Assembly: GCA_026392515.1 (NCBI GenBank)
Contig: JAPLBY010000030.1
Coordinates: forward strand, 2,902-66,901
Direction of reading: 5' to 3'
DNA length: 64,000 nucleotides
Source: Actinomycetota bacterium
GTDB taxonomy: Bacteria > Actinomycetota > Actinomycetes > S36-B12 > UBA5976
Under the pieces are notes generated by a model. That model was not told the origin of the DNA. It saw only the letters and a program-made list of their open reading frames with translations, and made no database searches. Positions 35,751 to 58,207 of this stretch are shown one piece after another. A program made the translations under genes and the position numbers. Numbering within the stretch: the first letter of the stretch is position 1; each line of letters begins with the position of its first letter.

Positions 35751-35930
35751 ATGGCTAATTCACCTAAAGAATCAGATCCGACAAAAGCGGCATTTCTTGC
35801 TGCCCTTGAAAAGAAGAAGTCACAAGGCGCCAAGGGAACTAGCGCTGGCACTACTGCTGAAAATGCTAAAGCTAAATCTTCTGGCCCAACTGCTCGCCGA
35901 ATTGAACGTCGCCGAAGCGGCAGCTCTTAA
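35751..35930 (+). CDS. DUF5302 family small basic protein
   Basis: MANSPKESDPTKAAFLAALEKKK...RRIERRRSGSS matches the actinobacterial DUF5302 pattern (FxxALxxKK...RRKSG). Confidence 0.6.
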   Translation: MANSPKESDPTKAAFLAALEKKKSQGAKGTSAGTTAENAKAKSSGPTARRIERRRSGSS

Positions 35931-38359
35931 ACTCGAATTCGAGAACCTGTCGGATCAAATACTGCATCTGGCGTAACTACTGCGCTGACTTTTCGGCCAC
36001 CACATGAAATTGAAACTACTTGACCTTCTTTAGTGTCGATCGGTAACCAGGCAAGTGCAACAGGCGCACCAACAGACCAGCCAAACTCAGCGCTAGTTAC
36101 GTAGCCAGCATTGCGATCTCCGATAAACACAGGCTGACTTACTGTTGGAACTAGATCGACTTCCGAAAGCTGCAGTGTTCTCAGTCTTCGCGTTGCAGGT
36201 TGAGTGGCTGCACTAAGTCCAATGTGATCACCGTCTGCGCGCACAGCAAACTCAAGGCCGGCGCTCGTTGGAGTGTCTTCCCGACTCATGTCACTTCCCC
36301 AAGCTCGGTATCCCTTTTCTAAACGCAGACTAGTCAGCGCGCTTCGCCCTGCTGGGATGGCGCCAACTTTATTTGCCTGTTCCATGATTGCGTTCCAAAG
36401 CTTCTTTCCGCCTGAAACATCGCAAGCAACTTCCCAGCCGAGTTCGCCAACATAAGAAACTCGAACAGCAGTTACATCAACTCCAGAAACGGATGTTTCT
36501 TTGGCTGAGAAGTACTTGAAAGTGTCATTGGTTAAGTCAGTATCTGTGATTGGCGACAGGATGTCTCGGGCAGCTGGTCCCCACACAGCAACACATGTCG
36601 TGCCGTTAGTAACGTCGGAAATCTGCACATCGAATCCGACCGAGATTGACTTGAGCCAAACTTCGTCTCTCGGGCTATTGCCGCCGACTAAGAACCGATC
36701 TTCAGCTAGTTGGCTGATAGTTACATCCGAAACTATGCCGCCATTGTGATCCAAGAGCATTGTGTAAGTTACTGACCCAACTCCCCTCGCCACGTTACGT
36801 GCAGCTGCGCGATCCAAGAAGGCGCCTGCATCAGGGCCAGTGACGGTGATTCGACGAAGTGAGGTCATGTCAAAGATGCCAGCAACTTCACGCGTCTTGA
36901 GATGTTCGGCGCCAGAAATTGGTGACCAGAATTTACGAGACCACTCATCACGTGCCGGAACACTCATTCCTGCAAGCAATCCAGCGTTTGATTCGAACCA
37001 ACGAGGACGCTCCCAGCCGGAAGTATCAAAGAAGGCAGCACCTAACTTTTCTTGCTCGTCATAAAACGGAGACATCCGAACCCCGCGTGGGCTAGTTGAA
37101 GGTTCGGCTGGATGGTGAATTGCGTAAGTATCGATGTAGGCGTTGTCACAGCGCTGTGCAAAATCAGCTGGAACTAGTTCGGCATCATCAAAGCGAGTTA
37201 AATCTGCTGGAGCGAAATCAATATCAGGTGCGATGCCACAAATCGCCTGCGCCAAAGAACGCGCTGCACCAATGGAATGAGTTGCCCAGAGACATTCAAG
37301 TATCCAAAGGCCATCAACGCTTGGCGCTGGACCCATTAGCGGAAAGCCATCGGCGGAATATGGGAAGACGCCGTTGTAAGCCTGTTCATATTTCAAACCA
37401 GACAAAACTGGCATTACCTCTAGCGTTTCAACCCAGGCTTGATCCCAATCAACCTGAGTAAATGGCAACTTGGATGGATCTTCTAAAGTCGCAGCGTTGT
37501 TGACCATGTCAGAATCACTAACGGGTAGCGCGCGATGGTTAAACGAACCGATTCCGGCTTTGTCACCTTCGTCGCGCACGTAAGTGCCCGCTTCGTAAAT
37601 TCGCACAAACGGAACGCTGGCGTCACCATCTCGGCCTTTTGCCAACACAGACACCGGCTCGGTAACTGCGTATTGATGTTCCATGGAAACTAAAGGCAAA
37701 GTCACGCCAGCCGTGGAGGCGATAGAACTTCCCCATCCACCGGCAGCAATTACAACTAAGTCAGCCGGGATCACGCCTGTGGCAGTTCTTACGCCAGTAA
37801 CTTTTGATCCGACAGTTTCAATTCCAGTCACCGTGGTGTTGCCGATAAATGTTGCACCGTTTGATTGCGCTCGTTCTCCTTGAGCTTGGGCTCCCCTAAG
37901 TGCCTTGCCAATGCCTTCGCCAGTTGTGTGAAAACCACCAATGAAAGTACTTGGATCTAACAATGGATTTAAGTTCGCGCATTCTTCAGGTGACAACATC
38001 TCGGCACTAAAGCCCCATGAGGCTGCAAATTCAGTGCGACGTACTAAGTAATTTAGACGCTCTGGAGTTAGCGCCACTTCAATTGATCCAACTGGATAAA
38101 AGCAAGGATCCCCAGCAACATCCATGCTTAAAAGCTTTGTAATTGTGTAATCGGCAAATCGATGCATCATCTTTGAAGTGCTGGTGCGAGTTACTAAACC
38201 TGGCGCATGTGAGGTAGCGCCACCGGTTTTCCAGATTGGTCCCTGATCAACAACGGTCACATCGCGCTGCCCGAGTTGCGTCAACTCGTCGGCTAACCCC
38301 GTGCCGGCAATACCTGCGCCAACAATAACAATCTTTAAGTTTGCCAACTCAATCTCCAC
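35927..38359 (-). CDS. FAD-dependent oxidoreductase fused to GcvT-like domain (second DMGDH/sarcosine dehydrogenase-like paralog)
   Basis: 810-aa ORF. N-terminal IVIVGAGIAGTGLADEL (DAO fold). C-terminal aminomethyltransferase-like domain (LEKGYRAWG). Confidence 0.85.
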   Translation of the reverse strand: MEIELANLKIVIVGAGIAGTGLADELTQLGQRDVTVVDQGPIWKTGGATSHAPGLVTRTSTSKMMHRFADYTITKLLSMDVAGDPCFYPVGSIEVALTPERLNYLVRRTEFAASWGFSAEMLSPEECANLNPLLDPSTFIGGFHTTGEGIGKALRGAQAQGERAQSNGATFIGNTTVTGIETVGSKVTGVRTATGVIPADLVVIAAGGWGSSIASTAGVTLPLVSMEHQYAVTEPVSVLAKGRDGDASVPFVRIYEAGTYVRDEGDKAGIGSFNHRALPVSDSDMVNNAATLEDPSKLPFTQVDWDQAWVETLEVMPVLSGLKYEQAYNGVFPYSADGFPLMGPAPSVDGLWILECLWATHSIGAARSLAQAICGIAPDIDFAPADLTRFDDAELVPADFAQRCDNAYIDTYAIHHPAEPSTSPRGVRMSPFYDEQEKLGAAFFDTSGWERPRWFESNAGLLAGMSVPARDEWSRKFWSPISGAEHLKTREVAGIFDMTSLRRITVTGPDAGAFLDRAAARNVARGVGSVTYTMLLDHNGGIVSDVTISQLAEDRFLVGGNSPRDEVWLKSISVGFDVQISDVTNGTTCVAVWGPAARDILSPITDTDLTNDTFKYFSAKETSVSGVDVTAVRVSYVGELGWEVACDVSGGKKLWNAIMEQANKVGAIPAGRSALTSLRLEKGYRAWGSDMSREDTPTSAGLEFAVRADGDHIGLSAATQPATRRLRTLQLSEVDLVPTVSQPVFIGDRNAGYVTSAEFGWSVGAPVALAWLPIDTKEGQVVSISCGGRKVSAVVTPDAVFDPTGSRIRV

Positions 38360-41434: not shown

Positions 41435-44400
41435 CTAGAAAACGGTGATTGTTCCTGCGGACGCTAGTGGACTTCTAGTTGCATCTCCCGAGTTACTAAA
41501 AGTCACAGTGCAAAGGCCCTTTTTCTTTGTTGCCTTGACGGCCCAACCGGTTTGCATCTTTACTTTCTTTTTCTTTATCTTTTTGCCCACCAAAACCTTT
41601 TCGGTGACCGTCTTGGTAATCTTTGTTGTTTTGCACTGACCCACAGATGTGACTTGAAGCGGCAAACCAGACGGTGCTGTAATTCCAAACTTGACGGTTT
41701 TGCCACGCTTTAATCGAGCTGGGAAACCTGGACCAGTCTGTGCAATCATTTGCGGCACAATCGTGGATGATAAATCAGGCCCAGGATTATTCACAACAGG
41801 TGGCTGGCTTGGGCTTGGCGAGTTTGATGGGCTTGGCGAGTTTGATGGGCTTGGCGAGTTTGATGGGCTTGGCGAGTTTGATGGGCTTGGCGCTGTCGAT
41901 ACCATTACCGACGCACTTTCCCGCCACGCACCTTTTCCTGTATCTCCAGCTTCATTTCTATCCTCGCGAATCGGGCGTACTCGGAATTCATATGTGAGGC
42001 CTTCTGAAAGCTCTTGCACTAAATAGGTGCTCGTATCATTTGCGTCGGCAGTGATTTCATCAAGATGAGTCCACGAATCAGCTCCTTCCAATCGGTATGA
42101 AATTTCATACTTATCGGCAAATTCAACACGATCCCAGATAAGCCTGACGGATCCACCCAGATCCGTGACTTGAATTTCATCCACTTGTTGAGTAAAAGCT
42201 TGGCAATCTATATCAGAAAGATTAGGGAAGCGAAGACGAGAATTCGATTTGAAACCATCGGCTGTGATTTCGCTTGTAGAATTTGACAAGAAATTTTCTA
42301 CTTGATTCCAGGCATTCAAGGAAGCCATTCGATCGCATCCAGAATCATATCTTGCATACGATTCAAACCAACTAAACTCATTACTGTCTCCTGGCTCCAC
42401 GAATAGGTAATTTTTAGACCAGAATTGATTTCTTGCAATGTTTCTATTGCCTTCAAGTCCGAGTCCGGCAAGATTCTCTGATTCCGCCGATGGATTGACT
42501 CTAACTACCATGCGACCATCCCCAGCTTCATAGTCGTTGCTTATGTTATCGCCGTCACTGGCCACTGCTATTTGGGAAAGTGAGTTGAATTCTTCTAGCA
42601 GATTTTGTTTTTGTCCTTCAACTTCAAGTAACGGTTCGTCGCCAATCCCTAAGTCACCGCCATACCAAACAGAATTCAAGTAAGAGTTCTCGCGGTCATT
42701 GTTATCTATTGAAATAGAAGTCTTTACCCACGGTGAATCTGCCGCAAAGAACCTGGTTAAGCGCACTGTTAATGGAGTTTCTACTATTCCATCATCGACA
42801 GTTACCGAACCACATCTAACTGTGGTTCCCTCTGTTTTCTTTGAAATGATTGCTGGGTTGGATGGTGTGTTTATGCAAGAGATCGTCGTTGGTGAATTCT
42901 CAGAACCGATTCGAACTGCCCCGCCAGTTAGCGCCTCGAAAATATCACTCCCGTTAATGCTGTAGCCGTTAATCTCCGCACTGTCCATTGCCCAGAAGGT
43001 GTCGGCTTCTTTGACAATCATAAATGGGGCTAAAGAGCTGTGAATTGACTGCTTTAAAACCTTATTCCAGCTTGCATCGGTATCGCCAAAATCATTTGAA
43101 AGGGCTACGATCCATCCCTTATTAACCATGAAACTAGTTACCAACGATGTTGAGTTCAACCCATCTGTCCCATCAGTTACGCCGTAGTTTGATGCGTACC
43201 CATCAGGGGATAGACCGGACAAATCCAATCCATCAAGTCCATATGTTTCAAGTGTCGGTGGTAGCGATGTATTTGCCCCGTAGTTTCGGCGCACGCCAGT
43301 TTCAGGTAGCACTGTCGCGGATTGGATCTGGGCGTCTTCTGGTTCGTCAAGGTAAGCGAAACGATTCAAATCATTAACATATGAAGCTGCGCCCGTAAGC
43401 ACAATGCGCCCGCCGTCGAATACCCAATTTCTCAGCACCTCAAAGGCTTCAATGCTCATAATGGCTGAATCCCATATTCCATCATTGCCAACGAGACTAG
43501 GTAATAAAACTACGTCTATACCTTCTAGGGCATCTCGCCATGCGTCAGCCGATCCCATTATCGATCCTTCGCCATATCCTTGACCATCAAAGACCTCTAC
43601 GCTTACAAACGGGCTCGAACAAGCCGCACTTAGGATCTCCGAGTCTGATGTTGCTGGATTCGTGCTTGTTCCCGAATTGGGCTTAGTACTCAACATAAGT
43701 ACCTTCAACTGGGGATTCAGCGAGGTGCAACCTGTAAGGCCGAAATAGAAAGGTGAAGATACCTGCCATGGGGCTGCTTCGGAAGCCAAGTTTTTAACTC
43801 TGATCATCCAGGTATCGCCAATCACAGGCCCGGATCCATGAGAGATCCCATCACCGATTATTTCTACTGTAATAAGAGTTGGCGAGGAGTCTTCGACTAG
43901 GAATGCTCCACCCCAAGTCTCTCCAAGATCAGTCGAAAGTTCGTATACATATTCCGGGTTTAGCTCTGCACCCACAGATGGCCAACTTGCAAAAACACGT
44001 CCCATGTCATTGAACAGATAGGGACCATTCGTAGCTGCTAACAAAAATTCAACTGATGAACTTCCTGCAAGGTTATGGGCCGTCAACGTAAAGCTTGAAG
44101 TCTCGACTGCCTGAAGAGGAGTACCAGTGATCTCACCTGTCTCCGCGTTCAAACTCAATCCATCTGGGAGATCAGGTGAAATGGTGTAGTAAGAAACCGT
44201 GCCTCCTGAGCTATTAAGCCAAGCATTGGTTTGTAAAGTAAATGGAGCGCCAACTGCTGTTGCAAAACTGCTTCTTAATGCCGTTATAACTGGCGCAACG
44301 ATATTGTTGTCGCTGTTATGCTCATCAATGATCTCTTGTGCTTGTTCCGGTGACAAGATGTAGGAAAAAGTCACAGTTTTAGTTGAACCTGCACTAATTG

Positions 44401-47400
44401 TGCCCAAGTCAAAGCCTAGGCCAATTCCTGAATCCCCAAATACCTGAGCACCCGGTGTGATGTTTACGTTAATGCATGTCTCGTTTCCACGGGGAACGCA
44501 ATCATTTTCCAACATTCCTGTAACGAAATCGACTGCTTTTTGCGAACCGAACCCATCAAAGCCAAATTCATCTTCATTCTCATACTGCAACGCAGCAACC
44601 GAATTGGGATCAGTAGAAACCATTCCAAGGTAAGAGTGAGGAGCGGTTAAATCAGTAGGCGCAACTTGATCATTGCAGTCGTCCATCATTATGGACGAAA
44701 CTAGTGACAGACCGTCGCTGGTACTTGCCTGAGCTTCAACGGTATTTAAACTGCTCCAGCCGCCGTCAATTTCTCGACAGGCATAAACATTTGCATCATT
44801 ATCAACTTGGCGTACATAATACACATCTTCTAGTGCTACATCGGAAGTATTCGTTAGCGTGACCGTGACATCGAGACGCTGATCGTTTACTGGCACTGCT
44901 GCAACTTGCGCTACCTGTAATCCGTTGGACAGTACTTGTGAGGTCCAAGTGCTTTGCTGTCTATCTGAATTAGTTTCTGCGACTTCGCTTAGCCGGGCAA
45001 TGTCGGTTTCTTGATGATTGTTGAAGTAAGAATTCCCACCTATATCTACTCCAAAACCCTCAAATGGTGTGCCTGGAACAAAGAAGTCACCATCGTCTTG
45101 CCCGACTCCCCAGCCATCTTTGTCTCGATCAGATACGAAACCAATGCGATCGGAAGATCCGCCACCTCCAGGACCTTCACCTTCACCACCGTCTCTTGGG
45201 TGGTAGCCGTCAGGAGCTGAACCCGTGCTACCAAAGTGGCCATTGCCACCAATGCCGACTTCGACGTAGGTTCCTTGAAGGAAGCGATCATCCGCAACTG
45301 GATTACTTGCGGTTACAACTAAATCCCCAGCAGCAGCTAAGTTGATAACTTCCACCCAAGGAGATGCGTCTTCACTAGAGGGGTCTTCGTACCAGTCAAA
45401 CCCAAAGTAGTAGACCATTCCACCGGCGTTAAAGGTGTTTTCAAATGATGCCACTGCGTATGTGTCATAACCCGAAGAAGCTTTATACAAGCCCTTCGCA
45501 TTAACCAAACTGAGCATTTCCCATTCTGTAGGACCAAAGGCTTCTGTACTTAGTGCTGACGTGCCATTTGCACGAGCGAGAGTTGACGGGGCCTCGAAAT
45601 TAACATCTTCACTTCGATCGAATGAAGCAGTATTGGACCAATCTGATTCAAATAGAATTTGAGTCCCAAGCAGATAATTGATATCAGTGAGGTGTGAGTA
45701 TGCACCTGTAAAAATCACTGGGTGACTCTCATTATTCCAATATCGCAGTCCCGACCAGATAGTCTCTGAAATCAAAAGCTCGCCATTTAACGAAGTGGTT
45801 GCTAGGTCTCTCTCGCTATCCATCTCTGGAAAAATCAGCGCAGATGCGCCTTGCAAGTTCATTCCCCAGGCAAATTCTGATCCGTCACCACCATCAAAGA
45901 CGTTGACATCGAAATTCTGACAGAGCGAAGTCAGTAAATTTGAGTCTTCGGCACCCGGCGAAGTATCGGTCATTGCATTGCCGTCGTCATCCGGGTTTCC
46001 ATTGCTAAACATGGTTACAAATTGATCTGTATTTGAGTTGTCGCAATCTTCCAAAACATTGGCAGGAAGAGAAACTTCGAAATCATCCCAGTTTTCCACT
46101 CCATATTCAGGCAAATACCATTGTGCTAGATAACCACCAACTAGAGCGTTTTCTGAAGGGCTGCTCTCCCACTTAAGGAAATCAGCTCCAGATGTATACA
46201 TAAATGTGTAGTTCTTAACAGTGTCACTTTCAGGGAGTTCATTAGACATCCAACGACTAGACATCCATGAAGTTAGTCCGTCTCTGATTCCATCCACCCA
46301 ACGCCAAGTTCCTTCGTCGGCTTGATCTGTAAGTCCAATCCATAGTCGCTCTGGGAGATTTGGCGTTGTATTGAGAAAGTTTTCCATTGCAAAGAATTCG
46401 GAATCAGTAACTCCTGAAGCTAAGTATCCATTAACACCTGACACAACAGAGTCATTTGATTGCGCTGCGGAACGTGCTTCACTCCATGTCATTGCCTCGC
46501 CAGGCTCGAAAACAGTGGCGCCGTAAAGTTGCTTTGAAATCGGATCGAATTTTGAATCGGCAGCTATTACACCGGCTTGAATTTTCGCTCCGTAATACGG
46601 GGTAATTGCGATCTTTCCAAGTAAGCAGTTCAAAGCACCTTGAGTTCCCATCGCAATCAACTGCGGTGACGTATCATTCGTTTCGCGTAGTGAGCCATCT
46701 GGGAATGAAATTCCCGAGCATTCATCGATACTTGTGTATCTAAATTGGCCATTGCTGATTGTCATTGCAAGACTTAATTGAGCTGCGGGATCAAACCCAG
46801 AAATTCTCGTTCGGTATGACGGAGTAAGAACTACTTCTTCGCCATCGACAAGATCAACATCAAGATTGATTAGTCCCTGATCATAAATCACCGGTTCTGG
46901 ATCAATTACTATGCTGAAGTTTTGCGTAGAAGAGTTTTCGTTTGAATCAGTGACTTGAACTGTAAATGTAAATGTGCCCACTGTCGATGGAGTCCCGGAT
47001 AAAGCTCCAGACGAAGAGAGTGCCATGCCTGGTGGCAAATCTGATCCGAGAGCTAGTGAATAAACATATGGTGACGTGCCACCATCTGCAGTCAAGGTGT
47101 ACGCCGAATATGGTGAATTAACTACGCCAGTTGGAATTGCCGCTTTTGAAATTGCAACTGCTTCAAATCTAATTGAGTTTGCTTTTAAGAATACCGCTGG
47201 TGATATTGCGTCATCATTTGCGTTTGCGATACCCATAGTTACATGAACATTTTCCGACGCGGACTTGAACTGGGAGATATCCACAACGCAAGACATGACT
47301 TGGGATACATCGACAGCATGTAATGGAGACTCTCGATCGACTGTTCGCGAGAAACCTGCAAGACGCAGATTGCCGACCGAAAGATATCTTTGGCTTAGCG

Positions 47401-50400
47401 TGGCACCAGGTACTGCACCATCTGGAAGAATTGCGCAGTTATCGGCTTGACTTTGACCGCCTACAAAAAGCGCAAACCCATCGGGATATTCATATGCTTC
47501 ACCACCAGTTTCGGTGCCAGCAATTGCGTACTCGAATTTCAAGAAATTTTGAGTTGGTTCAACATCGAAATCAATAAATGTTGAGTTATATGCACAATCA
47601 CTTCCAGGACCTGATCCATTTGTGCAAATTGGGCGATACTCGCCACCAATAAATGACATGACATTTGGTATCCAACTTTCAGAATTCCATAGTAGATCGT
47701 TTATTGCTGCTGAATTGGATTCGTAGGTCGAGTTTGTATTTGGATAGTTGATGCCATCTCTATTAGTTAATTCACTGGCTCTTTCGAAATATCTGACATT
47801 TGCCGGAGACATTAAAATTCCATTGGAAAATCCTACTGAAGTTTCGCCATAACTGAATCTTCCAAATTTTGAAGCAAAATCTTCTGAAAATGAACTCTCA
47901 CCATCAATTAGCACGTTGCTTATATGAACGCCAGAGTCAACAAGCTCCGAAACGAAAGTTAGCGGATTCCAATACCCATCTTCGACGGAATATCCATCTT
48001 GTACTGATTGGATTTGAAGTTCGTTTCCTGGGACACCAAAGGCCGAGAGGCTAAACTCACTATCCCCAACTCCATTGTTAGCAGACACTCGAACTTCGTA
48101 ACGTTCACCATTCGTAAGGCCTCTAATTGAATATGGCGCAGTGGCGGACGACGAGGCATCTGTCCAGATCGAATCATTCACGTTGCGATATTGAACTAAA
48201 TAGCTAGAAATTGCCGAGCCCCCCAAATCATTAGGTGGGTCCCAACGAACTGAAATCGCCCCATCCAAGCCTATGGTTCGGACATTTATAGGTTCGGAAG
48301 AATTGGTCGCAACTGGAGGTGCAATCGCATTACCAAAATGGTAGACGTACCTACCATCAACGTTGGAGTTGTAGAGTCCCTTATTTATGGGAAAGGCTGC
48401 CCCATCTGTTACTTCATCTGCCCCAAGGCCGTTGTATTGAAGTAGCGTTGCCTCGTCAGATAGCGAAGTTAGTTGCGGATTCCAATCTCCATTTTCATCT
48501 TTGTAATTTGTGCCGAGTCCGACCGCTACGCAACGACCAGATAGGGCATCGCACGGATAGCTTGGGCCCATAAAATTGGATCCATATCCATTGCCGGAAT
48601 CCAACATTGAGCCATAGTTAACAATTACGTCCGCAGAACCAAAGCTTGGTGAACCTGGATCTGATGATGAACTTGTGTCCTTGATAATGATTTGAAAAGT
48701 ACTCCAAAGGTTTGTTCGATCAATCACATTCTCTGAGTCGTCGTAACCTTCATTCTCTGAGTCGTCGTAACCTTTAGAGTTCATCCAGGTAGCAACAAAT
48801 GCTTGCTTTCCGTCAATGGTGGTCTTACCCCAATAAAAGAATTCCTGGTGCCGAGAAGAGTCCCAGACATAATCGGTATTCCTGACATCGCGATTGTCTA
48901 GATCAACCGCATAAGGAGCAATTACGCTGCCCCCAGTGTCACTGTCACATTTCAGAATTACATCAAGGGGCGTGTCGTAACAAGTGGATGGGCTTCCAAA
49001 TGACACCGATCCATTTGAATTAACGTAGATACTGCTGTATTCGTGGCCGTAAAAATTGATAGTAAAGCCAAGTGGCAATCCTGATAGTTCCTGAGCACCT
49101 GGTCCTTCTGTAACGCCTTCGGCGCCAACGCTACAGTCATCGCAAGCCCAGCCATTTCTAGCGGTAAACGAAGCACCGTTTGGGCCGAATCCATTGAACT
49201 CGGATGCAAATTTCTCGTCCCAAGAACTACCGGCGATAACAGGAGTGGTCGAATCGCCATTGCTTAAATCGCAGCCAATGGGATACCCATTTGAGTCGAG
49301 CAGAATATTGTTAGCAAAATCTTGACCTCGATAGTCAATACAGCCCGCAACTTCCGAGGGTGAATCCGAAGGAGATGGTGAATCTGAAGGAGATGGTGAA
49401 TCTGAAGGAGATGGTGAATCTGAAGGAGATGGTGAATCTGAAGGACCCGGGGTGCCCGTGTTTGAAGGTGATGGCGAAGGCGATGGTAGGTTCCCGCCTT
49501 CTACATAAATTCCATAAGTGTCGCTTAGGAATGACTCGACTGCGGCATATTCCTCGGCAGTTAATTCGCGATCGAATGCAGTAACATCTGCAACTTGAAA
49601 ATCTGATGATTCATATGTTGCGAAATTACCATTATTGATTGTTAATTGTCCTGGTCCAACTCCATCTGAAAATCCATCAATACTCCGAGTAATTCCATTA
49701 CTGCGATAAAGATTCTTCTGATCAGTTGATATAACCCAGTCAAGATTGTGAACCGAAGTAGTGGGAATCATCCAACCATCAGCATATGAATTTGTTCCAG
49801 CTGCACCGTGATAGGCAACTCCTGAGCGTCCAATACCAGATGGATCACCTGCTCCATGGAATCCGGATAGCCAGTTTCCACCATCTCCATCACGTCCATC
49901 AAATATTCGTTGATAACTTCCGGATAGCACATCGTTATATCGAGCTACTGAGAATAGCGTGTAATCACCTGTCATCATGTTGCTTGGAAATGTAATTCCA
50001 TCCGAAGGGGTTCCTTGCACGGTCAAGAAGCTAGAAACATTATTTGTGCCATAACCGCTTGAACTAAAGTTTTGCACTGGCAAACCTGAAACTACTGCCT
50101 GCCTTGTTTCGTCTGTGGGATGCATGTAATCGGGCCAATACCCGGAAATCACTTCAGTGGCATTAACGAAATCTTGGGCCCGATAGCGCGAAAAATTCGA
50201 ATTAGCGATTGGAATGGATATAACGACCCGGCCGGAAGCACCATCGCCACCGGGTCCACCGAATCCATCGGCTTCGCCACCACCCATTCCGGAATTTGCC
50301 CAACCAGAAATACCGTTTGTATCTTGCGTGCCACCAAATGCAACATTGGTAAACCCTGTAAGTATCGGATCATACTCCGGCGTTGTTGACATTGACGGGT

Positions 50401-50851
50401 TTGAAGTCGCCGGGCCGAATGCTCCCCCTGAGATTGCTGATGCGGTTCCTGCTGTAGCTAAGTTTGAGCTGGTACCAGCACCACCAGTTCCTACCGTAAC
50501 CGAAACAATTTCGGATCCAGAAAAACTAGCGGCATATTTCATTACGGCGCCGCCAAACCCACCAGCCTGCGCAGTACCACCATCGCCGCCTGCAACGATT
50601 AGCACTTGTGCATTCTCAGTTGCATCAGCCGGTGCAGTCCAGTCGCAGGATCCGACCTGCGTAAAGTCGTAAACCCTTCTTAGCGACGTCCCATCAAAAA
50701 CTATTTCTGAACTCACTGCGCACGAAGACGGGACTGCGCTAACTGGTGGCGCAATTTGCAGCAATGTAATTGCAAGTACGGCACTTAACGTCATGCTCCA
50801 GAAACGCAACAGGCGTCTACGCGCGAGCGACGCGCCTTGACCTGTGAACAT
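41435..50851 (-). CDS. Giant secreted multidomain surface protein (about 3,138 aa)
   Basis: Uninterrupted 9.4-kb ORF. The ATG at 50851 is preceded by GGAGG with a 7-nt spacer. The signal peptide is RRRLLRFWSMTLSAVLAITLLQIAPPVSA. Domain-like segments recognised by eye are listed in the findings. The ORF track starts at 50884. Confidence 0.85.
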   Translation of the reverse strand: MFTGQGASLARRRLLRFWSMTLSAVLAITLLQIAPPVSAVPSSCAVSSEIVFDGTSLRRVYDFTQVGSCDWTAPADATENAQVLIVAGGDGGTAQAGGFGGAVMKYAASFSGSEIVSVTVGTGGAGTSSNLATAGTASAISGGAFGPATSNPSMSTTPEYDPILTGFTNVAFGGTQDTNGISGWANSGMGGGEADGFGGPGGDGASGRVVISIPIANSNFSRYRAQDFVNATEVISGYWPDYMHPTDETRQAVVSGLPVQNFSSSGYGTNNVSSFLTVQGTPSDGITFPSNMMTGDYTLFSVARYNDVLSGSYQRIFDGRDGDGGNWLSGFHGAGDPSGIGRSGVAYHGAAGTNSYADGWMIPTTSVHNLDWVISTDQKNLYRSNGITRSIDGFSDGVGPGQLTINNGNFATYESSDFQVADVTAFDRELTAEEYAAVESFLSDTYGIYVEGGNLPSPSPSPSNTGTPGPSDSPSPSDSPSPSDSPSPSDSPSPSDSPSEVAGCIDYRGQDFANNILLDSNGYPIGCDLSNGDSTTPVIAGSSWDEKFASEFNGFGPNGASFTARNGWACDDCSVGAEGVTEGPGAQELSGLPLGFTINFYGHEYSSIYVNSNGSVSFGSPSTCYDTPLDVILKCDSDTGGSVIAPYAVDLDNRDVRNTDYVWDSSRHQEFFYWGKTTIDGKQAFVATWMNSKGYDDSENEGYDDSENVIDRTNLWSTFQIIIKDTSSSSDPGSPSFGSADVIVNYGSMLDSGNGYGSNFMGPSYPCDALSGRCVAVGLGTNYKDENGDWNPQLTSLSDEATLLQYNGLGADEVTDGAAFPINKGLYNSNVDGRYVYHFGNAIAPPVATNSSEPINVRTIGLDGAISVRWDPPNDLGGSAISSYLVQYRNVNDSIWTDASSSATAPYSIRGLTNGERYEVRVSANNGVGDSEFSLSAFGVPGNELQIQSVQDGYSVEDGYWNPLTFVSELVDSGVHISNVLIDGESSFSEDFASKFGRFSYGETSVGFSNGILMSPANVRYFERASELTNRDGINYPNTNSTYESNSAAINDLLWNSESWIPNVMSFIGGEYRPICTNGSGPGSDCAYNSTFIDFDVEPTQNFLKFEYAIAGTETGGEAYEYPDGFALFVGGQSQADNCAILPDGAVPGATLSQRYLSVGNLRLAGFSRTVDRESPLHAVDVSQVMSCVVDISQFKSASENVHVTMGIANANDDAISPAVFLKANSIRFEAVAISKAAIPTGVVNSPYSAYTLTADGGTSPYVYSLALGSDLPPGMALSSSGALSGTPSTVGTFTFTVQVTDSNENSSTQNFSIVIDPEPVIYDQGLINLDVDLVDGEEVVLTPSYRTRISGFDPAAQLSLAMTISNGQFRYTSIDECSGISFPDGSLRETNDTSPQLIAMGTQGALNCLLGKIAITPYYGAKIQAGVIAADSKFDPISKQLYGATVFEPGEAMTWSEARSAAQSNDSVVSGVNGYLASGVTDSEFFAMENFLNTTPNLPERLWIGLTDQADEGTWRWVDGIRDGLTSWMSSRWMSNELPESDTVKNYTFMYTSGADFLKWESSPSENALVGGYLAQWYLPEYGVENWDDFEVSLPANVLEDCDNSNTDQFVTMFSNGNPDDDGNAMTDTSPGAEDSNLLTSLCQNFDVNVFDGGDGSEFAWGMNLQGASALIFPEMDSERDLATTSLNGELLISETIWSGLRYWNNESHPVIFTGAYSHLTDINYLLGTQILFESDWSNTASFDRSEDVNFEAPSTLARANGTSALSTEAFGPTEWEMLSLVNAKGLYKASSGYDTYAVASFENTFNAGGMVYYFGFDWYEDPSSEDASPWVEVINLAAAGDLVVTASNPVADDRFLQGTYVEVGIGGNGHFGSTGSAPDGYHPRDGGEGEGPGGGGSSDRIGFVSDRDKDGWGVGQDDGDFFVPGTPFEGFGVDIGGNSYFNNHQETDIARLSEVAETNSDRQQSTWTSQVLSNGLQVAQVAAVPVNDQRLDVTVTLTNTSDVALEDVYYVRQVDNDANVYACREIDGGWSSLNTVEAQASTSDGLSLVSSIMMDDCNDQVAPTDLTAPHSYLGMVSTDPNSVAALQYENEDEFGFDGFGSQKAVDFVTGMLENDCVPRGNETCINVNITPGAQVFGDSGIGLGFDLGTISAGSTKTVTFSYILSPEQAQEIIDEHNSDNNIVAPVITALRSSFATAVGAPFTLQTNAWLNSSGGTVSYYTISPDLPDGLSLNAETGEITGTPLQAVETSSFTLTAHNLAGSSSVEFLLAATNGPYLFNDMGRVFASWPSVGAELNPEYVYELSTDLGETWGGAFLVEDSSPTLITVEIIGDGISHGSGPVIGDTWMIRVKNLASEAAPWQVSSPFYFGLTGCTSLNPQLKVLMLSTKPNSGTSTNPATSDSEILSAACSSPFVSVEVFDGQGYGEGSIMGSADAWRDALEGIDVVLLPSLVGNDGIWDSAIMSIEAFEVLRNWVFDGGRIVLTGAASYVNDLNRFAYLDEPEDAQIQSATVLPETGVRRNYGANTSLPPTLETYGLDGLDLSGLSPDGYASNYGVTDGTDGLNSTSLVTSFMVNKGWIVALSNDFGDTDASWNKVLKQSIHSSLAPFMIVKEADTFWAMDSAEINGYSINGSDIFEALTGGAVRIGSENSPTTISCINTPSNPAIISKKTEGTTVRCGSVTVDDGIVETPLTVRLTRFFAADSPWVKTSISIDNNDRENSYLNSVWYGGDLGIGDEPLLEVEGQKQNLLEEFNSLSQIAVASDGDNISNDYEAGDGRMVVRVNPSAESENLAGLGLEGNRNIARNQFWSKNYLFVEPGDSNEFSWFESYARYDSGCDRMASLNAWNQVENFLSNSTSEITADGFKSNSRLRFPNLSDIDCQAFTQQVDEIQVTDLGGSVRLIWDRVEFADKYEISYRLEGADSWTHLDEITADANDTSTYLVQELSEGLTYEFRVRPIREDRNEAGDTGKGAWRESASVMVSTAPSPSNSPSPSNSPSPSNSPSPSNSPSPSQPPVVNNPGPDLSSTIVPQMIAQTGPGFPARLKRGKTVKFGITAPSGLPLQVTSVGQCKTTKITKTVTEKVLVGKKIKKKKVKMQTGWAVKATKKKGLCTVTFSNSGDATRSPLASAGTITVF
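41811..41900 (-). repeat. 18-bp tandem array (5 units, last one variant) encoding (SPSPSN)n linker
   Basis: GGGCTTGGCGAGTTTGAT occurs four times perfectly, then GGGCTTGGCGCTGTCGAT. In frame within the giant gene. Confidence 0.95.
48727..48774 (-). repeat. Perfect 24-bp tandem duplication inside the giant gene
   Basis: CATTCTCTGAGTCGTCGTAACCTT occurs twice back to back. It encodes the duplicated ENEGYDDS. Confidence 0.95.
49359..49448 (-). repeat. 18-bp tandem array (about 5 units) encoding (SPSPSD)n linker
   Basis: GGTGAATCCGAAGGAGAT, then GGTGAATCTGAAGGAGAT three times, then a partial unit. In frame within the giant gene. Confidence 0.95.
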
Positions 50852-51073
50852 TCGAGCGCCTCCAGTTTGTGCTTGAAAAAGCACGAAAAACTATGCTGTC
50901 TAACCAAAATAGGGGCGTCGGCTTTGAAACCAATCATTCTTTTACCGTTGTTTAACTAAGTCTGGGGCTACCCCAACCGACCTACTAGGGCTATCCCTAG
51001 CGATGACCAAAGTGTCCGTTTTGATTCACAGAATCTGCAAAATAGACATTTGGAACGCGTCATACTTCTATAT

Positions 51074-51730
51074 ATGAACAGTCCGCGCTTACTCGTCATC
51101 GAAGATGATGCCTTTACGCGAACATCTATAGTCGGTGCTTTGATCGGTAACGGAATTGAAGTAATCGATTCAGTTGGAACCTCAGCTGAGGCCATAACCT
51201 CATTTGAAAAGCACTCCCCTAACGCAGTTCTACTTGATCTAGATCTTGGCTATGGTCCAACAGGTCTTGACCTAGCGCGCGCTTTTAGGTTGCGCAATCC
51301 AAACGTTGGCCTCGTGATGCTTACTTCATACACTGATCCCCGATTGTTGAGGTCTAAACTTCCAGACATTCCTGCCGGTACTGAATATTTAGTAAAAAGC
51401 AATGTCAATGAGATCAAAATTGTTAGCGAAGCGATAGCGCAAGCAATGGACAATGCATCAGGTGCTCGCTCAAAAAGCAGGCAACCACGTCATGACATCC
51501 CGAGAGATATTCAAGGCATGACTGACATCCAAATTGAAACGCTACGGATGGTCGCCCAAGGACATACCAACAGTGAGATTGCAAAGCAGCGATTTGTGAG
51601 CGAAAAGGCTGTTGAGCAAACTATTGCAAAGATTGCTAAAGCTCTCGACATACCTGCTGCCACGAACCAAAATCAACGAGTTCACATTGCGCGAGTTTTC
51701 TTTAGGCTAACTGGTCAAGGAAACATGTAA
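51074..51730 (+). CDS. Response regulator, NarL/LuxR family
   Basis: Receiver domain (LLVIEDD...AVLLDLDLG...MLTSY) plus a C-terminal GerE-type HTH (LRMVAQGHTNSEIAKQRFVSEKAVEQTIAKI). I chose the ATG at 51074 (MNSPRLLVIEDD). Confidence 0.88.
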   Translation: MNSPRLLVIEDDAFTRTSIVGALIGNGIEVIDSVGTSAEAITSFEKHSPNAVLLDLDLGYGPTGLDLARAFRLRNPNVGLVMLTSYTDPRLLRSKLPDIPAGTEYLVKSNVNEIKIVSEAIAQAMDNASGARSKSRQPRHDIPRDIQGMTDIQIETLRMVAQGHTNSEIAKQRFVSEKAVEQTIAKIAKALDIPAATNQNQRVHIARVFFRLTGQGNM

Positions 51731-53451
51731 TGTTTTCGGAAAGTGCGCGCACCGCACTCTCAGGACGTTGGGCAATTTCACGAGATCCCTACATATTCAT
51801 TGCACCAACAACCATCGCATCAGTGATTTTGCTCCAAGCGACAACTTTTGAAGCAGCAGAGATTTGGGGTTGGTTTCTGGCGTCAACCGGCGGCTACTTA
51901 GTTTTTTGTTTTTTGCTGTATTTGGCACACATAACCCTGTATCGAAACCGAGCAACCACACCTGTGCCCGTTGCCTGGATTTTTGCAGTCGGGTTTGTCT
52001 TTGGCGCCATAAAGGGTGCGTCAACTGCCGCTATCAGTGTTGGCTTGAATCTTGAATCTGATCTGAATGCAGAAATAGTCGGAAGAGCACTACCTGCCGG
52101 ATTACTTGGCTTAGCCGGCGTTCCATCTATGGCATTACTTATGCATGCGTTACATGAGTTTCGGCGAAAGCGAGCTGAGCTCATTGCTGAACAACTCTTT
52201 ATTGAATCTAAGGAAGTTCAAAGCCATGAACTAATCGCTACCATGAGCGCTCAATTGCGCGAAAAAGTGGAAGTTGACTTGGGGGTTCTCATGGAGGACC
52301 TAAAAAACAGCTTAGATTCTGATTCAGGTCAGACTGATTCGTGGCAATTGATAGCCGATGACTTGCGAACCACGGCGAATGAAACTGTGCGGGATGTGAG
52401 CCATGGATTGTGGGAGCGACCTGCAACCAAAGTAGAAGAAATTTCCTTCCTCGACCTTGCTCGAGCCATGATTACAACGAGTGCTTTCCCGCTTCGATAC
52501 ATTATTCCGATTTTGCTTGTCTCGGCAGCTCCAGTAAACATCAAGGATCACGGCACGGACGAACTTGTGGTTCGCCTTCTTTCACTTGCCCTTTGCACTT
52601 CCATTACATATCTGATTGCTTCCTGGGGAATCAAGAAATTTGTCGACTATAGATACCAGATCTATTTGTCAGCTCTTGTGTTAGCAGGATTGATTCCATC
52701 CGTTGGTGCAATCGTGATCTTTAATGATCCCGTGAATCAGCACTTTATTGGCGTCTCCATAACCATTGCTCTTTGGCTCCCAACCCTGACGATTACCTGC
52801 GGCCTAATCGATACAGCCTTGAAGCAACGGCAAGAGATTCTCGACGAACTACAATCCCGGATCGACAAGAGTCGCGTTAGAACTGTTTCCGAGAATAATG
52901 AAGCGATTCGCCTAAGTAACGACATGGCGAAGTATCTTCATGGCAACCTTCAGTCTCGGCTGATGGCGTCTGCTTTTGCAATTGAAGCAGCTGGTCGCGC
53001 GCAGGATGCTGGAGCGCTTGCGCAGGAGATTGAAAAGGCCCGCCAAAGTATCCAAACCCCGTTTGATCAATTCACTGGCATTGAACTGGAAGCCATATCA
53101 ATCGAATTGCCTAAATTGATGAAAATGTGGGACGGCGTGCTAACAACAGAAATCAACATTGCTGGGTCAGATGACTTTGTCTCAGTCACGGATACTCGAA
53201 ACATTATTCACATCATCGAAGAATGTTTCTCTAACTCACTTAGGCATGGCCTGGCCACAGAGGCCACAATCATCTTGATTGCAACTGGAACTGGAATCTC
53301 GCTTTCCGTAATTGATAACGGATTAGGTCCACGAGATGGGTTACCAGGTCTTGGGTCCTCACTATTCAATTCGATTGCCGGCAGCAACTGGTCATTGGTT
53401 CGAGGCCCAGACGGCATTGGTACGCAACTTAATTTGCAAATAACCAAGTAG
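51730..53451 (+). CDS. Membrane sensor histidine kinase (HisKA_3-type)
   Basis: 573-aa ORF. The N-terminal half has multiple TM helices. H-box YLHGNLQSRL, N-box ECFSNSLRHG and G-box DNGLGP. Start overlaps the regulator stop (ATGTAATG). Confidence 0.85.
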   Translation: MFSESARTALSGRWAISRDPYIFIAPTTIASVILLQATTFEAAEIWGWFLASTGGYLVFCFLLYLAHITLYRNRATTPVPVAWIFAVGFVFGAIKGASTAAISVGLNLESDLNAEIVGRALPAGLLGLAGVPSMALLMHALHEFRRKRAELIAEQLFIESKEVQSHELIATMSAQLREKVEVDLGVLMEDLKNSLDSDSGQTDSWQLIADDLRTTANETVRDVSHGLWERPATKVEEISFLDLARAMITTSAFPLRYIIPILLVSAAPVNIKDHGTDELVVRLLSLALCTSITYLIASWGIKKFVDYRYQIYLSALVLAGLIPSVGAIVIFNDPVNQHFIGVSITIALWLPTLTITCGLIDTALKQRQEILDELQSRIDKSRVRTVSENNEAIRLSNDMAKYLHGNLQSRLMASAFAIEAAGRAQDAGALAQEIEKARQSIQTPFDQFTGIELEAISIELPKLMKMWDGVLTTEINIAGSDDFVSVTDTRNIIHIIEECFSNSLRHGLATEATIILIATGTGISLSVIDNGLGPRDGLPGLGSSLFNSIAGSNWSLVRGPDGIGTQLNLQITK

Positions 53452-53481: not shown

Positions 53482-54618
53482 ATGAATGCACGCGAACAGT
53501 CGCAGTATGACCACATCGTCATCGGTGGTGGCGCAATGGGCTCGGCAACTGCTTGGCAGCTTGCGAAGCGTGGCCGCAGCGTTCTTTTGCTCGAACAGTT
53601 CACAAAAGATCATGTTTCGGGTAGTTCTCATGGCGGCACCAGAATCTTTCGTCTTGGGCATGAGCAAAAGACATACACAACCCTCGGCATTGCTGCCCTT
53701 GATCTTTGGCGCGAGCTCGAAGCCGAATCCAATGAAACATTAGTTGAGTTAATTGGGCACGTTGATCATGGACCCGCAGAAGTTGTCGCTGACATCGAAT
53801 CAAACCTGAAGGCCCAAGGACTTGCATGTGAGCGCATGTCTCCAGAGCAAGCAAATCAGCGTTGGCCCGGAATCACTTTCGATGCAAATGTGGTTTATAG
53901 CCCTGATGGCGGTCGAGCTCATGCGCAACGAACCGTTGACACTTTATGGCGACGGACTGTTGAACTAGGTGGCGAGATTTGGGATAACACCAAGGTTGAG
54001 TCCGTCGAAATTGATGGTGACTTCGCAATCATCGAAACCGCTGATCAAACTCTACAAACAAAGTCTGTAGTGGTTTCTGCTGGAGCCTGGCTCCCCCGAC
54101 TAATTGGTCATCATGTTTCACTTCGTGGTCATCATGTTTCACTTCGGCCTCTGCACGCAGTTCGCGCCCAGCCATCCCATTTCGCTCCCCGACCTGGCTT
54201 TGACGATATAGATATGTGGCCAACGTTTATCCATCGAGGTCTTAGTGCCCAGCCCGAAGTTGAGAACAGTTGGTATGGGCTCTGGACACCCGGCGAAGGC
54301 GTAAAAGTTGGCTCACATCTGGTGCACGATGAACTTGATTTGGACAACCGAAGTTTTGAAATAAATCGTAAGTTTGAGTCAGCGCTGCAAGAATATGTTG
54401 CCCAGTGGTATCCGGGATTAGATGCCGACAAAGTCACCTCAACAACCTGCATTTACACAAATGAGCCGAACGAGCACTTCATATTGGATCGCAAGGGGCC
54501 GCTTACTGTCTGCTCACCCTGTTCAGGCCATGGATTTAAGTACGTACCAGCAATTGGAAATATCACAGCAGATTTAGCGATGGGTGGCACTCAAAGCGTT
54601 AAAGAGTGGCAGTTCTAA
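53482..54618 (+). CDS. Monomeric sarcosine oxidase / N-methyltryptophan oxidase-like FAD enzyme
   Basis: YDHIVIGGGAMGSATAWQLAKRG dinucleotide fold and the C-terminal CSGHGFKY covalent-flavin Cys motif. 378 aa. Confidence 0.85.
   Translation: MNAREQSQYDHIVIGGGAMGSATAWQLAKRGRSVLLLEQFTKDHVSGSSHGGTRIFRLGHEQKTYTTLGIAALDLWRELEAESNETLVELIGHVDHGPAEVVADIESNLKAQGLACERMSPEQANQRWPGITFDANVVYSPDGGRAHAQRTVDTLWRRTVELGGEIWDNTKVESVEIDGDFAIIETADQTLQTKSVVVSAGAWLPRLIGHHVSLRGHHVSLRPLHAVRAQPSHFAPRPGFDDIDMWPTFIHRGLSAQPEVENSWYGLWTPGEGVKVGSHLVHDELDLDNRSFEINRKFESALQEYVAQWYPGLDADKVTSTTCIYTNEPNEHFILDRKGPLTVCSPCSGHGFKYVPAIGNITADLAMGGTQSVKEWQF
54106..54147 (+). repeat. 21-bp tandem duplication (20/21 identical) inside the sarcosine-oxidase-like gene
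   Basis: GGTCATCATGTTTCACTTCGT followed by GGTCATCATGTTTCACTTCGG. It encodes GHHVSLR-GHHVSLR. Confidence 0.95.
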
Positions 54619-55259: not shown

Positions 55260-55333
55260 GGGGCGGTAGCTCAGTTGGTCAGAGCATCGGACTCATAATC
55301 CGTGGGTCGTCGGTTCGAGCCCGACCCGCCCCA
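55260..55333 (+). tRNA. tRNA-Met (anticodon CAT; elongator-type, Ile2/lysidine type not excluded)
   Basis: GGGGCGGTAGCTCAGTTGGTCAGAGCATCGGACTCATAATCCGTGGGTCGTCGGTTCGAGCCCGACCCGCCCCA folds as a cloverleaf with a paired 1:72 and anticodon loop CTCATAA. Confidence 0.9.
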
Positions 55334-55378
55334 CCGTTAAGGACTTTTTAAGTCTTTTAGAGCCGTTTAAGGCACTTT

Positions 55379-55399
55379 GACAGCAACGTTGACAGCAAC
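55379..55399 (+). promoter_or_regulatory. GACAGCAAC-N3-GACAGCAAC direct-repeat motif, copy A
   Basis: GACAGCAACGTTGACAGCAAC lies 45 nt after the tRNA-Met 3' end. Related copies are at 57254 and 58013. Confidence 0.45.
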
Positions 55400-55439
55400 C
55401 ATCTCAAAGAGTCACACAAAAAAAATTTCTAGGCTTGAG

Positions 55440-56924: not shown

Positions 56925-57176
56925 AAAACTCCCTAGTTATCAGTGCGCATTTTGACCATAGCAGTTTAGGTTCGAAGCTCTTGATAAACCGTACAGATAC
57001 CGCGTGGTGGTCTCGAAATAGAACTAAGTCAACATTTGGCGGGAGAAAACGCGTACAAAACACGTACAACATGCACAGATATCAAACGACACAAACCGAC
57101 ATGGAACTACATCAAAGCCTTGCTATAACTACATAAACCGACATCAAACGATATAGAACTACACGCTCAGGCCATC

Positions 57177-57219
57177 CTCATAATCCGTGGGTCGTCGGTT
57201 CGAGCCCGACCCGCCCCAC
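57177..57219 (+). repeat. Perfect 43-nt copy of tRNA-Met positions 55292-55334 (att-like site)
   Basis: CTCATAATCCGTGGGTCGTCGGTTCGAGCCCGACCCGCCCCAC is identical from the anticodon loop to one nt past the discriminator base. Confidence 0.9.
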
Positions 57220-57253
57220 TGCTAAAGGGTTTCTATGCTGAAAATTTCTGTTT

Positions 57254-57274
57254 GACAGCAACTCAGACAGCAAT
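57254..57274 (+). promoter_or_regulatory. GACAGCAAC-N3-GACAGCAAT motif, copy B
   Basis: GACAGCAACTCAGACAGCAAT lies 35 nt after the tRNA fragment at 57177-57219. Confidence 0.45.
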
Positions 57275-57365
57275 CAGCTTCTACGAAGCAATGAACAACA
57301 CCCAACAATCAACTCGACTTGTTTCCATTTAAATTTGAACGTGAGGACCTACCTCATTAAGTCTC

Positions 57366-57872: not shown

Positions 57873-58012
57873 TTGTGGGTCAGTAGTATCACATTCACAA
57901 CATTACTGCAGGCTTCGGGACTGCTGAAGGTTTAGTTGACTAATTGACCTAACCCCCACTTTTCAGGCCTATGTTATTCAAGAGTGGGACAGCTCGCATC
58001 AGATCAAATTCG

Positions 58013-58033
58013 GACAGCAACGCTGACAGCAAC
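58013..58033 (+). promoter_or_regulatory. GACAGCAAC-N3-GACAGCAAC motif, copy C
   Basis: GACAGCAACGCTGACAGCAAC. A partial third unit GACAGCTCG lies at 57988-57996. Confidence 0.45.
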
Positions 58034-58183: not shown

Positions 58184-58207
58184 TCACTTACCTGGAGGTT
58201 ACTTGTC

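Follow-up and report, generated by a model that had tools for sequence, protein, structure and literature searches.

A giant mosaic gene for a predicted surface protein with a basic C-terminal domain in a freshwater actinobacterium

The giant gene and its predicted product

We analyzed a stretch of 64,000 nucleotides (nt; hereafter the window) of an Actinomycetota bacterium (contig JAPLBY010000030.1 of the assembly GCA_026392515.1, positions 2,902 to 66,901), in which a single giant gene lies on the minus strand. An earlier note, made by inspecting the sequence, had described this gene as one uninterrupted open reading frame (ORF) of 9.4 kb occupying about 15% of the window and its product as a giant, secreted mosaic protein of the surface type. 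The first description was borne out: the ORF at 41435..50884 runs for 3,149 codons from a GTG without interruption, is the longest in the window, and takes up 14.8% of its length. The second is upheld by a signal peptide and by modules confirmed in profile searches. We propose, with a probability of about 55%, that the gene encodes a Sec-exported, fibril-like extracellular protein of ~330 kDa, which is a recombining surface protein of a freshwater actinobacterium that has a small genome and is close to Candidatus (Ca.) Nanopelagicales. The features of the gene are as follows, from the N-terminus to the C-terminus of the product.

41435..50884, minus strand: whole ORF from the GTG start, with the stop codon at 41435-41437; likely coding sequence (CDS) 41435..50851
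50735..50851, minus strand: signal peptide MFTGQGASLARRRLLRFWSMTLSAVLAITLLQIAPPVSA, with cleavage predicted before V; Arg-rich n-region, hydrophobic core, and VSA cleavage motif, read by eye
50210..50722, minus strand: glycine-rich domain (Gly_rich_2, PF21722)
49475..50209, minus strand: conserved module of ~245 amino acid residues (aa), earlier called LamG-like; homologous modules in relatives, no profile match
49340..49474, minus strand: Ser/Pro linker 1, (SPSPSD)n; 18-nt tandem array of 4.8 copies at 49359-49445
48275..49339, minus strand: NIDO-containing region; Pfam match at nt 48665-49033, 54% identity to the homologous protein P0001
48020..48274, minus strand: FN3 domain 1 (PF00041)
47171..47953, minus strand: choice-of-anchor L domain (NF038133); homologues annotated as PF26766 Choice_anch_L
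46904..47152, minus strand: He_PIG Ig-like domain 1 (PF05345, E 4e-20)
46505..46885, minus strand: module of ~127 aa with MGTQGALNCLLGKIAITP (GT..LN module), first half of a cassette; no Pfam match
46085..46504, minus strand: Cys-free C-type-lectin-like domain (WIGLTDQADEGTWRWVDG; PF00059), second half of the cassette
45344..46084, minus strand: module A1, predicted α/β of the class-I glutamine amidotransferase (GATase1) type with no nucleophile Cys apparent; paralogue of B1
44270..45343, minus strand: module A2, N-terminal motif region followed by a large predicted β-sandwich; best-conserved interior segment across lineages
44015..44269, minus strand: He_PIG Ig-like domain 2, second PF05345 stretch (aa 2204-2283 by phmmer)
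43730..44014, minus strand: FN3-like spacer, likeness by eye, no Pfam match; shared with P0003, P0004, and L004
42965..43729, minus strand: module B1, predicted GATase1-like α/β; paralogue of A1
42185..42964, minus strand: module B2, predicted all-β with a C-terminal helix and a conserved GCDR motif; in the core common to the whole family
41915..42184, minus strand: FN3 domain 2 (PF00041 and Fn3_Dep-1); match to the FN3 of gp130 in the PDB
41738..41914, minus strand: Ser/Pro linker 2, (SPSPSN)n, and a Pro-rich stretch; 18-nt tandem array of 4.6 copies at 41810-41892
41438..41737, minus strand: basic C-terminal domain of 100 aa with a charge of +19, 2 conserved Cys, a QTGW motif, and a Lys-rich hairpin

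The real product most likely starts at the ATG at 50851 and comprises 3,138 aa, because a GGAGG Shine-Dalgarno sequence is located 9 nt upstream of this codon and P0001 starts with the same Met. The signal peptide is kept in P0001 and P0002 and shows 97% identity in a relative with an average nucleotide identity (ANI) of ~93%. A Kyte-Doolittle scan of the whole protein yielded a single hydrophobic segment, which is located in this signal peptide. Despite the RRR in the signal peptide, which is possibly Tat-like, export via Sec is more likely than that via Tat, as the substrate is as large as 330 kDa. The combined hydrophobicity and motif scan of the protein found neither a C-terminal LPXTG nor a C-terminal transmembrane segment, in agreement with the absence of a sorting signal claimed before. 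An LPETG does occur inside module B1 (aa 2526-2530, window 43309-43323); it is accompanied by no downstream hydrophobic segment and not kept in homologues, and was judged to be a chance occurrence.

The product can be described as ~17 independently folding modules strung in series, with 30 Cys that are paired inside modules, two per module. Every module is acidic, with a net charge of -3 to -40 each. In contrast to the last 100 aa, of which the net charge is +19 (pI 10.7 and 2 Cys for the last 90 aa), the remainder of the protein has a pI of 4.05. Scans for promoters and terminators returned fewer sites than shuffled sequence, and the sole match in a PHROGs search, of the FN3 type and to a tail protein, was judged uninformative.

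Conserved ends and a replaced interior

The DNA of L001, the locus of the relative with ~93% ANI, aligns to the window at 92-94.5% up to position 41839 and resumes from 50745. Between the two positions, only 44585-45290 (79%) and a patch of ~400 nt (68%) align. The 3' breakpoint of homology falls inside the repeat array of linker 2, and the 5' resumption is found just past the signal peptide. At the protein level, conservation in the relative with ~93% flanks is limited to the signal peptide and a C-terminal portion of ~135 residues, and the interior shows amino-acid identities of 27-74% with modules gained or lost. In the A2 region, the DNA is conserved at 72-79% over ~44585-45292, and that of L004 at 66% across a longer stretch.

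Across the relatives, the architecture is collinear with individual modules being present or absent, and the nearest relative varies along the protein. The portion from NIDO to choice-of-anchor L is closest to P0001 (54%), A2 to P0002 (74%), B1-B2 to L004, P0003, and P0004 (46-49%), and the tail to P0002 (97%). Altogether, such a pattern is expected when recombination replaces allelic cassettes, and not from gradual divergence alone.

The basic C-terminal domain

No match to the basic C-terminal domain was found in Pfam, NCBIfam, or the PDB. From eight tails we built a profile, which retrieved only 100 matches at E<=1e-3 among 1.84 billion representative proteins. In some 60-65 of the 100, a single uninterrupted match covers the domain from end to end, and in nearly all of these it runs to the final residue of the protein, the proteins being 54 to 3,852 aa long. 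The domain is ~90-100 aa long, and its Cys, QTGW, and KKG-x-C motifs are conserved over diverse passengers, namely He_PIG domains, fn3 arrays, or DUF5122 propellers. Each of the complete examples (P0076, P0078, and P0092) has a signal peptide of its own, and the domain follows a Pro/Ala/Ser linker. Secreted proteins of differing build share this rare domain, which is portable and placed only at their extreme C-terminus.

The tail is probably a non-covalent cell-wall anchor. To our knowledge, the attachment of surface proteins has not been described in this actinobacterial lineage. Two other proteins encoded in the window carry a C-terminal domain of the OmpA family, and non-covalent C-terminal attachment to the wall is therefore likely to be used in this genome. 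We also considered whether these OmpA-tailed propellers and the basic-tailed P0076 and P0092 represent the same passenger with alternative anchors; they share only a Pfam repeat family with no pairwise homology, and the argument was set aside as weak.

Modules recognized by profiles

Ten domains had been called by eye in the earlier note, and nine of them gained support from Pfam or NCBIfam profiles at about the same coordinates, the exception being the LamG call. He_PIG (PF05345) scored 72.4 bits against a cut-off of 24 (E 4e-20) with copies at aa 1245-1327 (the best) and ~2204-2283, and fn3 (PF00041) scored 62.1 bits against 25 (E 6e-17) with copies at aa 874-947 and ~2904-2970. The choice-of-anchor L domain (NF038133; 48 bits against 27) covers aa 978-1238 and the profile positions 4-219 of 219. 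NIDO (PF06119; aa 618-740) was detected with 33.4 bits against a cut-off of 25 (E 5.6e-8) as a partial match to the profile positions 2-113 of 186. Gly_rich_2 (PF21722) reached 31.8 bits against 24.3 when aa 49-228 were scanned alone, and 21.2 bits in the scan of the whole protein. The label "eukaryote-like" given to the adhesion domains was overstated, since NIDO recurs in the bacterial homologues P0001 and P0023.

The module at 49475..50209, which corresponds to the LamG/concanavalin-like domain proposed at ~49490-50197, has counterparts in P0002, P0005-P0008, P0014 (four copies), and P0041. The assignment to LamG found no backing: no Pfam match, including PF13385, was obtained for aa 225-469 at E<=10, seven homologous segments matched no LamG family at E<=0.01, and a profile built from these segments matched no relevant structure in the PDB. 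The ending of the module, FQVADVTAFDRELTAEEY, resembles LamG_3, a likeness to which profile searches gave no support.

As for the C-type-lectin-like domain placed at ~46117-46498, Lectin_C (PF00059) matches aa 1465-1554 at a marginal 23.2 bits, 0.6 bits above the cut-off of 22.6, and the C-type lectins DEC-205, CLEC4F, tetranectin, and mincle in the PDB match at E of 2e-6 to 1e-4, with the alignment confined to the N-terminal two thirds. The domain has no Cys, and its C-terminal third is unaligned. The segment may well adopt a C-type-lectin-like fold; the name "lectin" is not justified. No counterpart of the cassette formed with the GT..LN module (aa 1334-1600) was detected by phmmer in nine relatives or in a scan of the metagenome contigs of JGI. 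A foreign origin of the cassette was considered on the basis of composition and set aside, as its G+C content at third codon positions (0.34-0.36) differs too little from that of the neighbor genes (0.37-0.47) for any conclusion.

The two long stretches

Two long stretches had been left unassigned and regarded as candidates for new folds. The comparison of homologues divides them into A1 (aa 1601-1847), A2 (aa 1848-2205), the FN3-like spacer (aa 2291-2385), B1 (aa 2386-2640), and B2 (aa 2641-2900). The hhalign comparison of A1 with B1 gave a probability of 98.8% and an E of 1.4e-16, by which the two modules are taken to be homologous, and that of A2 with B2 found the two unrelated at the profile level. 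A BLAST self-comparison of the protein detected no internal duplication at 1e-3, and the link between A1 and B1 emerged only via homologues and hhalign. None of the four modules has a sequence relative in Pfam, NCBIfam, or the PDB; sequence and profile searches against the PDB gave noise.

We modeled the two regions with AlphaFold (AF2). Homologue searches to deepen the alignments of regions A and B added only 3 and 2 proteins, respectively, and the models are shallow for this reason. The mean predicted local distance difference test (pLDDT) score of the region-A model is 63.6, with ~55-84 per block of 10 residues in A1 (mostly 65-84). A1 was modeled as alternating β/α, for which Foldseek retrieved the GATase of PyrG and PuuD (E ~1e-4, template modeling score, TM, ~0.26). 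No nucleophile-elbow Cys is found among the invariant residues, such as those of a GGR motif. A GATase1-like fold is therefore likely, and catalysis unlikely, for A1 and B1.

The last 260 residues of A2 matched the N-terminal supersandwich of GH116/GH94, aldose epimerase, and the P1 domain of YidC (E 3e-7 to 1e-4, TM 0.2-0.26) with patchy pLDDT. The region-B model, with a mean pLDDT of 47.5 and ~45-70 in B2, returned the same GH94/GH116/YidC supersandwich set (E 3e-7 to 1e-4), which we treat as tentative. Distant homologues of A2 are P0048 (the N-terminus of a CHU_C protein of the Bacteroidota type), P0049, and P0024. A DxDxDG-like loop of A2, SDRDKDGWG (aa ~1917-1925), is conserved as SDPDMDGWA in P0048 and is a putative Ca-binding site. 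The region of this loop is the most conserved part of A2, yet the worst modeled one (pLDDT ~30). Altogether, with moderate to low confidence, the modules of A and B appear to be new sequence families of probably known folds. What remains of the earlier proposal is the novelty at the sequence level; each stretch resolves to a GATase1-like α/β module and a β-supersandwich-like module.

The locus and its relatives

A scan of 185,579 species genomes found relatives solely in metagenome-assembled genomes (MAGs) of Actinomycetota, including three of Ca. Nanopelagicales from Lake Mendota and one from a pond, and all of the named relatives are of Actinomycetota or Ca. Nanopelagicales MAGs. Homologues with a length of 2,464-3,852 aa and a collinear architecture occupy this locus in ten independent assemblies. 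A DUF2237 gene neighbors the giant gene in ten independent loci. The DUF2237 proteins show 92-99% amino-acid identity across these loci, other neighbor proteins 63-98%, and B1-B2 of the giant protein 26-49%. The giant gene occupies a fixed chromosomal position, with a DUF2237 gene beside it wherever the assembly extends far enough.

In the window, the giant gene is followed on its 5' side by two genes on the opposite strand.

51050..51730, plus strand: response regulator of the NarL/LuxR type (Response_reg and GerE), divergent from the giant gene
51730..53451, plus strand: polytopic membrane protein of 573 aa, probable sensor histidine kinase (HATPase_c at 20.8 bits, below the cut-off)

This divergent pair lies upstream of the giant gene in all four loci extending past its 5' end (L001-L004). 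The full-length regulator is adjacent in three lineages, and the copy in L001 was called only as a GerE protein of 137 aa. The kinase-like protein is syntenic in L001-L004 with 62-97% amino-acid identity, and one member of its cluster is named "signal transduction histidine kinase". This two-component system may control the expression of the giant gene. The DUF2237 gene is at the 3' end of the giant gene except in L002, L003, and L004, in which it is found upstream of the giant gene, adjacent to the regulator and kinase genes or farther out. Moreover, L004 has neither the ion-channel nor the CLC genes, and the locus is therefore considered to rearrange at its edges from lineage to lineage.

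A second patch of variable surface-protein genes was observed at 55336-62645, just after a tRNA-Met gene (55260-55335). Of this patch, only ~300 nt align to L001 (~93% ANI), at 68%, and it looks like a tRNA-adjacent flexible island. It includes a polytopic membrane protein of 494 aa with no Pfam match (55440-56924, minus strand) and two secreted repeat/β-propeller proteins with a C-terminal peptidoglycan-binding domain of the OmpA family (58208-59791 and 60009-62645, both on the minus strand). FN3-like coding fragments in two frames (ORFs of 103 and 62 aa) are located in an ORF-poor gap at 57366-57872 (minus strand), which is probably a decayed or frameshifted surface-protein gene.

Elsewhere in the window, two paralogues of the dimethylglycine-dehydrogenase type (DAO and GCV_T; 13081-15552 and 35927-38359) and a sarcosine-oxidase-like DAO protein (53482-54618) were found, and the three genes suggest the catabolism of methylated amines or glycine betaine. 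The RNA of bacterial RNase P, class A, is encoded at 11071-11428 on the minus strand (316.9 bits).

Possible roles of the giant protein

We propose the following working model for the surface protein. The basic tail would bind the anionic cell wall non-covalently, and the linker and FN3 domain next to it would form a stalk, from which charge repulsion would push the acidic body outward. The distal modules, i.e., the Gly-rich, NIDO, and choice-of-anchor L domains, the C-type-lectin-like cassette, and the supersandwich modules with the DxDxDG-like loop, could bind glycans or particles. Alleles would be swapped by homologous recombination via the conserved ends, the core flanks, and the linker repeats, and the swapping would keep many surface variants in the population, as expected under targeting by phages or grazers. 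Adhesion and a decoy role against phages or grazers, as suggested in the earlier note, are plausible functions, and so is the evasion of phages or grazers. As a more speculative extension, which we regard as possible but doubtful, the basic two-Cys domain may be an unrecognized wall-anchoring or sorting module of a narrow group of freshwater Actinomycetota, and the gene a dedicated cassette-swapping locus, in which recombination at the ends for the signal peptide and the linker/anchor would trade entire blocks of ligand-binding modules, the Cys-free C-type-lectin-like cassette among them. The product would then form the principal variable coat of these ultrasmall cells, acting as a phage receptor or against grazing, and the two-component system might switch it.

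Several points weigh against the proposed surface protein. Both the surface location and the expression of the product are predictions from the gene, and ligand binding is putative for every distal module. The C-type-lectin-like domain lacks the canonical Cys (none in aa 1421-1613) and therefore the two disulfides (four Cys) expected of such domains. Its region for the Ca2+/carbohydrate loop (aa ~1545-1590) was aligned by HMMER to no C-type lectin in the PDB; the loop read by eye, NELPES ... KWES, differs from the canonical EPN or QPD ... WND. The folds of A2 and B2 were assigned from models with mean pLDDT values of ~64 and ~47 and Foldseek TM scores of 0.2-0.3. The anchoring role is deduced from the position, charge, and portability of the tail, and the tail may just as well serve as a tag for secretion or sorting or in oligomerization. 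Part of the extreme divergence inside the gene could come from fast evolution instead of recombination. Finally, the family is rare, with 5 of the 185,579 species genomes and 3 metagenome loci retrieved by pattern scans, and a general ecological role is therefore not implied.

The signal peptide combined with the absence of a covalent anchor signal would also suit a released scaffold, which is secreted or shed and binds polysaccharides, algal exudates, or particles, possibly so as to aggregate substrates, with the basic tail bound to anionic polymers in the environment and not to the wall of the cell itself. The carbohydrate-associated folds resembled by the modules (the GH94/GH116 supersandwich, C-type-lectin-like, and choice-of-anchor L) are in line with such a protein. 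We nevertheless consider it unlikely: the Pfam and NCBIfam scans of the protein detected no catalytic glycosidase or other catalytic domain, in many passengers unrelated to each other the tail is invariably the last element and follows a linker, as in the layout of a wall anchor, and the loss of a 330-kDa protein would be costly for a genome of ~1 Mb (L004 is on a contig of 1.09 Mb). Hypervariability at the strain level, moreover, is typical of exposed cell-surface structures (PMC3458243). The main alternative to the wall anchor for the basic tail itself is a sorting or export signal, which would be recognized by a dedicated machinery and removed or covalently processed, like the C-terminal domain of the type IX secretion system (T9SS) or sortase signals. 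The T9SS domain is likewise a C-terminal β-sandwich of ~80-100 aa, and the strict placement of the ~90-100-aa tail at the extreme C-terminus, with its Cys, QTGW, and KKG-x-C conserved over diverse passengers, is what such a signal would show. On the other hand, no candidate gene for the machinery was found beside the giant gene at any locus, no sorting-domain model of NCBIfam matches, the proteins bear ordinary N-terminal signal peptides, and so strong a positive charge is seen more typically in modules that bind the wall, so that we find this role rather improbable.

We regard it as a remote possibility that the gene arose as a chimera of the assembly, or is a pseudogene in decay, and yields no functional product. 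The source is indeed a MAG, the exact protein is absent from a collection of 15 billion proteins under three candidate starts, and the lectin-like cassette was not found in relatives or the JGI metagenome contigs. The tandem repeats of 18 nt in the two (SPSPSx)n linkers are perfect, but the arrays measure only 83-87 bp each, and at <90 bp they are too short to endanger the assembly seriously. Furthermore, the frame is open for 9.4 kb with the Cys paired within modules, and ten independent assemblies have collinear homologues of 2,464-3,852 aa in this position. Two accession numbers are left between those of the DUF2237 protein (MCX6417469) and the kinase (MCX6417472), which would fit an annotated giant CDS and the regulator. 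Two further candidates were rejected. The C-terminus is the conserved part of the protein and no toxin/immunity pair is present, at odds with a polymorphic toxin; the N-terminal signal peptide, the actinobacterial host, and the absence of RTX repeats are at odds with an RTX adhesin exported by a type I secretion system (T1SS).

Comparison with known systems

Actinobacteria of the Nanopelagicales type dominate freshwater plankton and have genomes of ~1-1.5 Mb. The single gene described here accounts for ~0.7% of such a genome and must repay its cost. Few parts of the window vary as strongly between near-identical strains, and the product is therefore a concrete candidate for the structure that phages or grazers recognize on these cells. 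The picture proposed above agrees with a report of high microdiversity among the cell-surface genes of Nanopelagicales (PMC12817590). Five uncharacterized module families are added by this study, namely A1/B1, A2, B2, the GT..LN module, and the basic C-terminal domain.

The metazoan C-type lectin domains (DEC-205, CLEC4F, tetranectin, and mincle) share with the domain in the giant protein a WIGL-T-D...EG-W-W-DG core and the preceding helices, which can be aligned. In contrast to the metazoan domains, the canonical Cys are all missing, the long-loop region for Ca and sugar is unaligned, and the cassette is embedded in a bacterial giant protein and undetected in the relatives retrieved. The adhesins of the LPXTG/sortase MSCRAMM type resemble the giant protein in the modular build rich in Ig and FN3 domains and the N-terminal signal peptide, but the giant protein has no C-terminal LPXTG, hydrophobic segment, or charged tail of their kind, its sole LPETG being internal and unconserved. 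The non-covalent wall-binders of Gram-positive bacteria (SLH, GW, LysM, choline-binding, and OmpA-like) have the same layout of a signal peptide, a passenger, a Pro/Ser linker, and a portable terminal module, and the two proteins in the window with the OmpA-family domain carry it C-terminally in the same way. The basic two-Cys domain differs from them in belonging to none of these families and occurring in a single copy, and its binding to the wall is putative.

In Alteromonas macleodii, the genomic islands GI3/GI10 are flexible islands of a single gene each, encoding giant surface proteins of 5,751-6,388 aa, and such variable proteins have been linked to phages or predation (PMC3458243). The giant protein belongs to this known class of giant hypervariable surface proteins: it is of >2,000 aa, bears an export signal and Ig/FN3-type modules, and is encoded at a fixed locus with variable content between conserved flanks. 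Thousands of residues, Ig-like/FN3 modules, an extracellular nature (predicted in our case), strain-specific content at a fixed locus, and a proposed tie to phage recognition or evasion or to grazing defense are common to both. On the other hand, the host in our case is an actinobacterium of the Gram-positive type with no outer membrane, and export is predicted to rely on a signal peptide at the N-terminus instead of a T1SS/RTX signal. Its variation is intragenic, with the ends for the signal and the putative anchor kept, instead of the presence or absence of the whole gene, and its repertory comprises NIDO, choice-of-anchor L, C-type-lectin-like, and pairs of GATase1-like and supersandwich modules. 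As giant variable surface proteins are already known from marine bacteria, the finding extends this pattern and overturns nothing, and is of interest chiefly for a domain that may serve as an anchor and for an architecture in which cassettes appear to be swapped.

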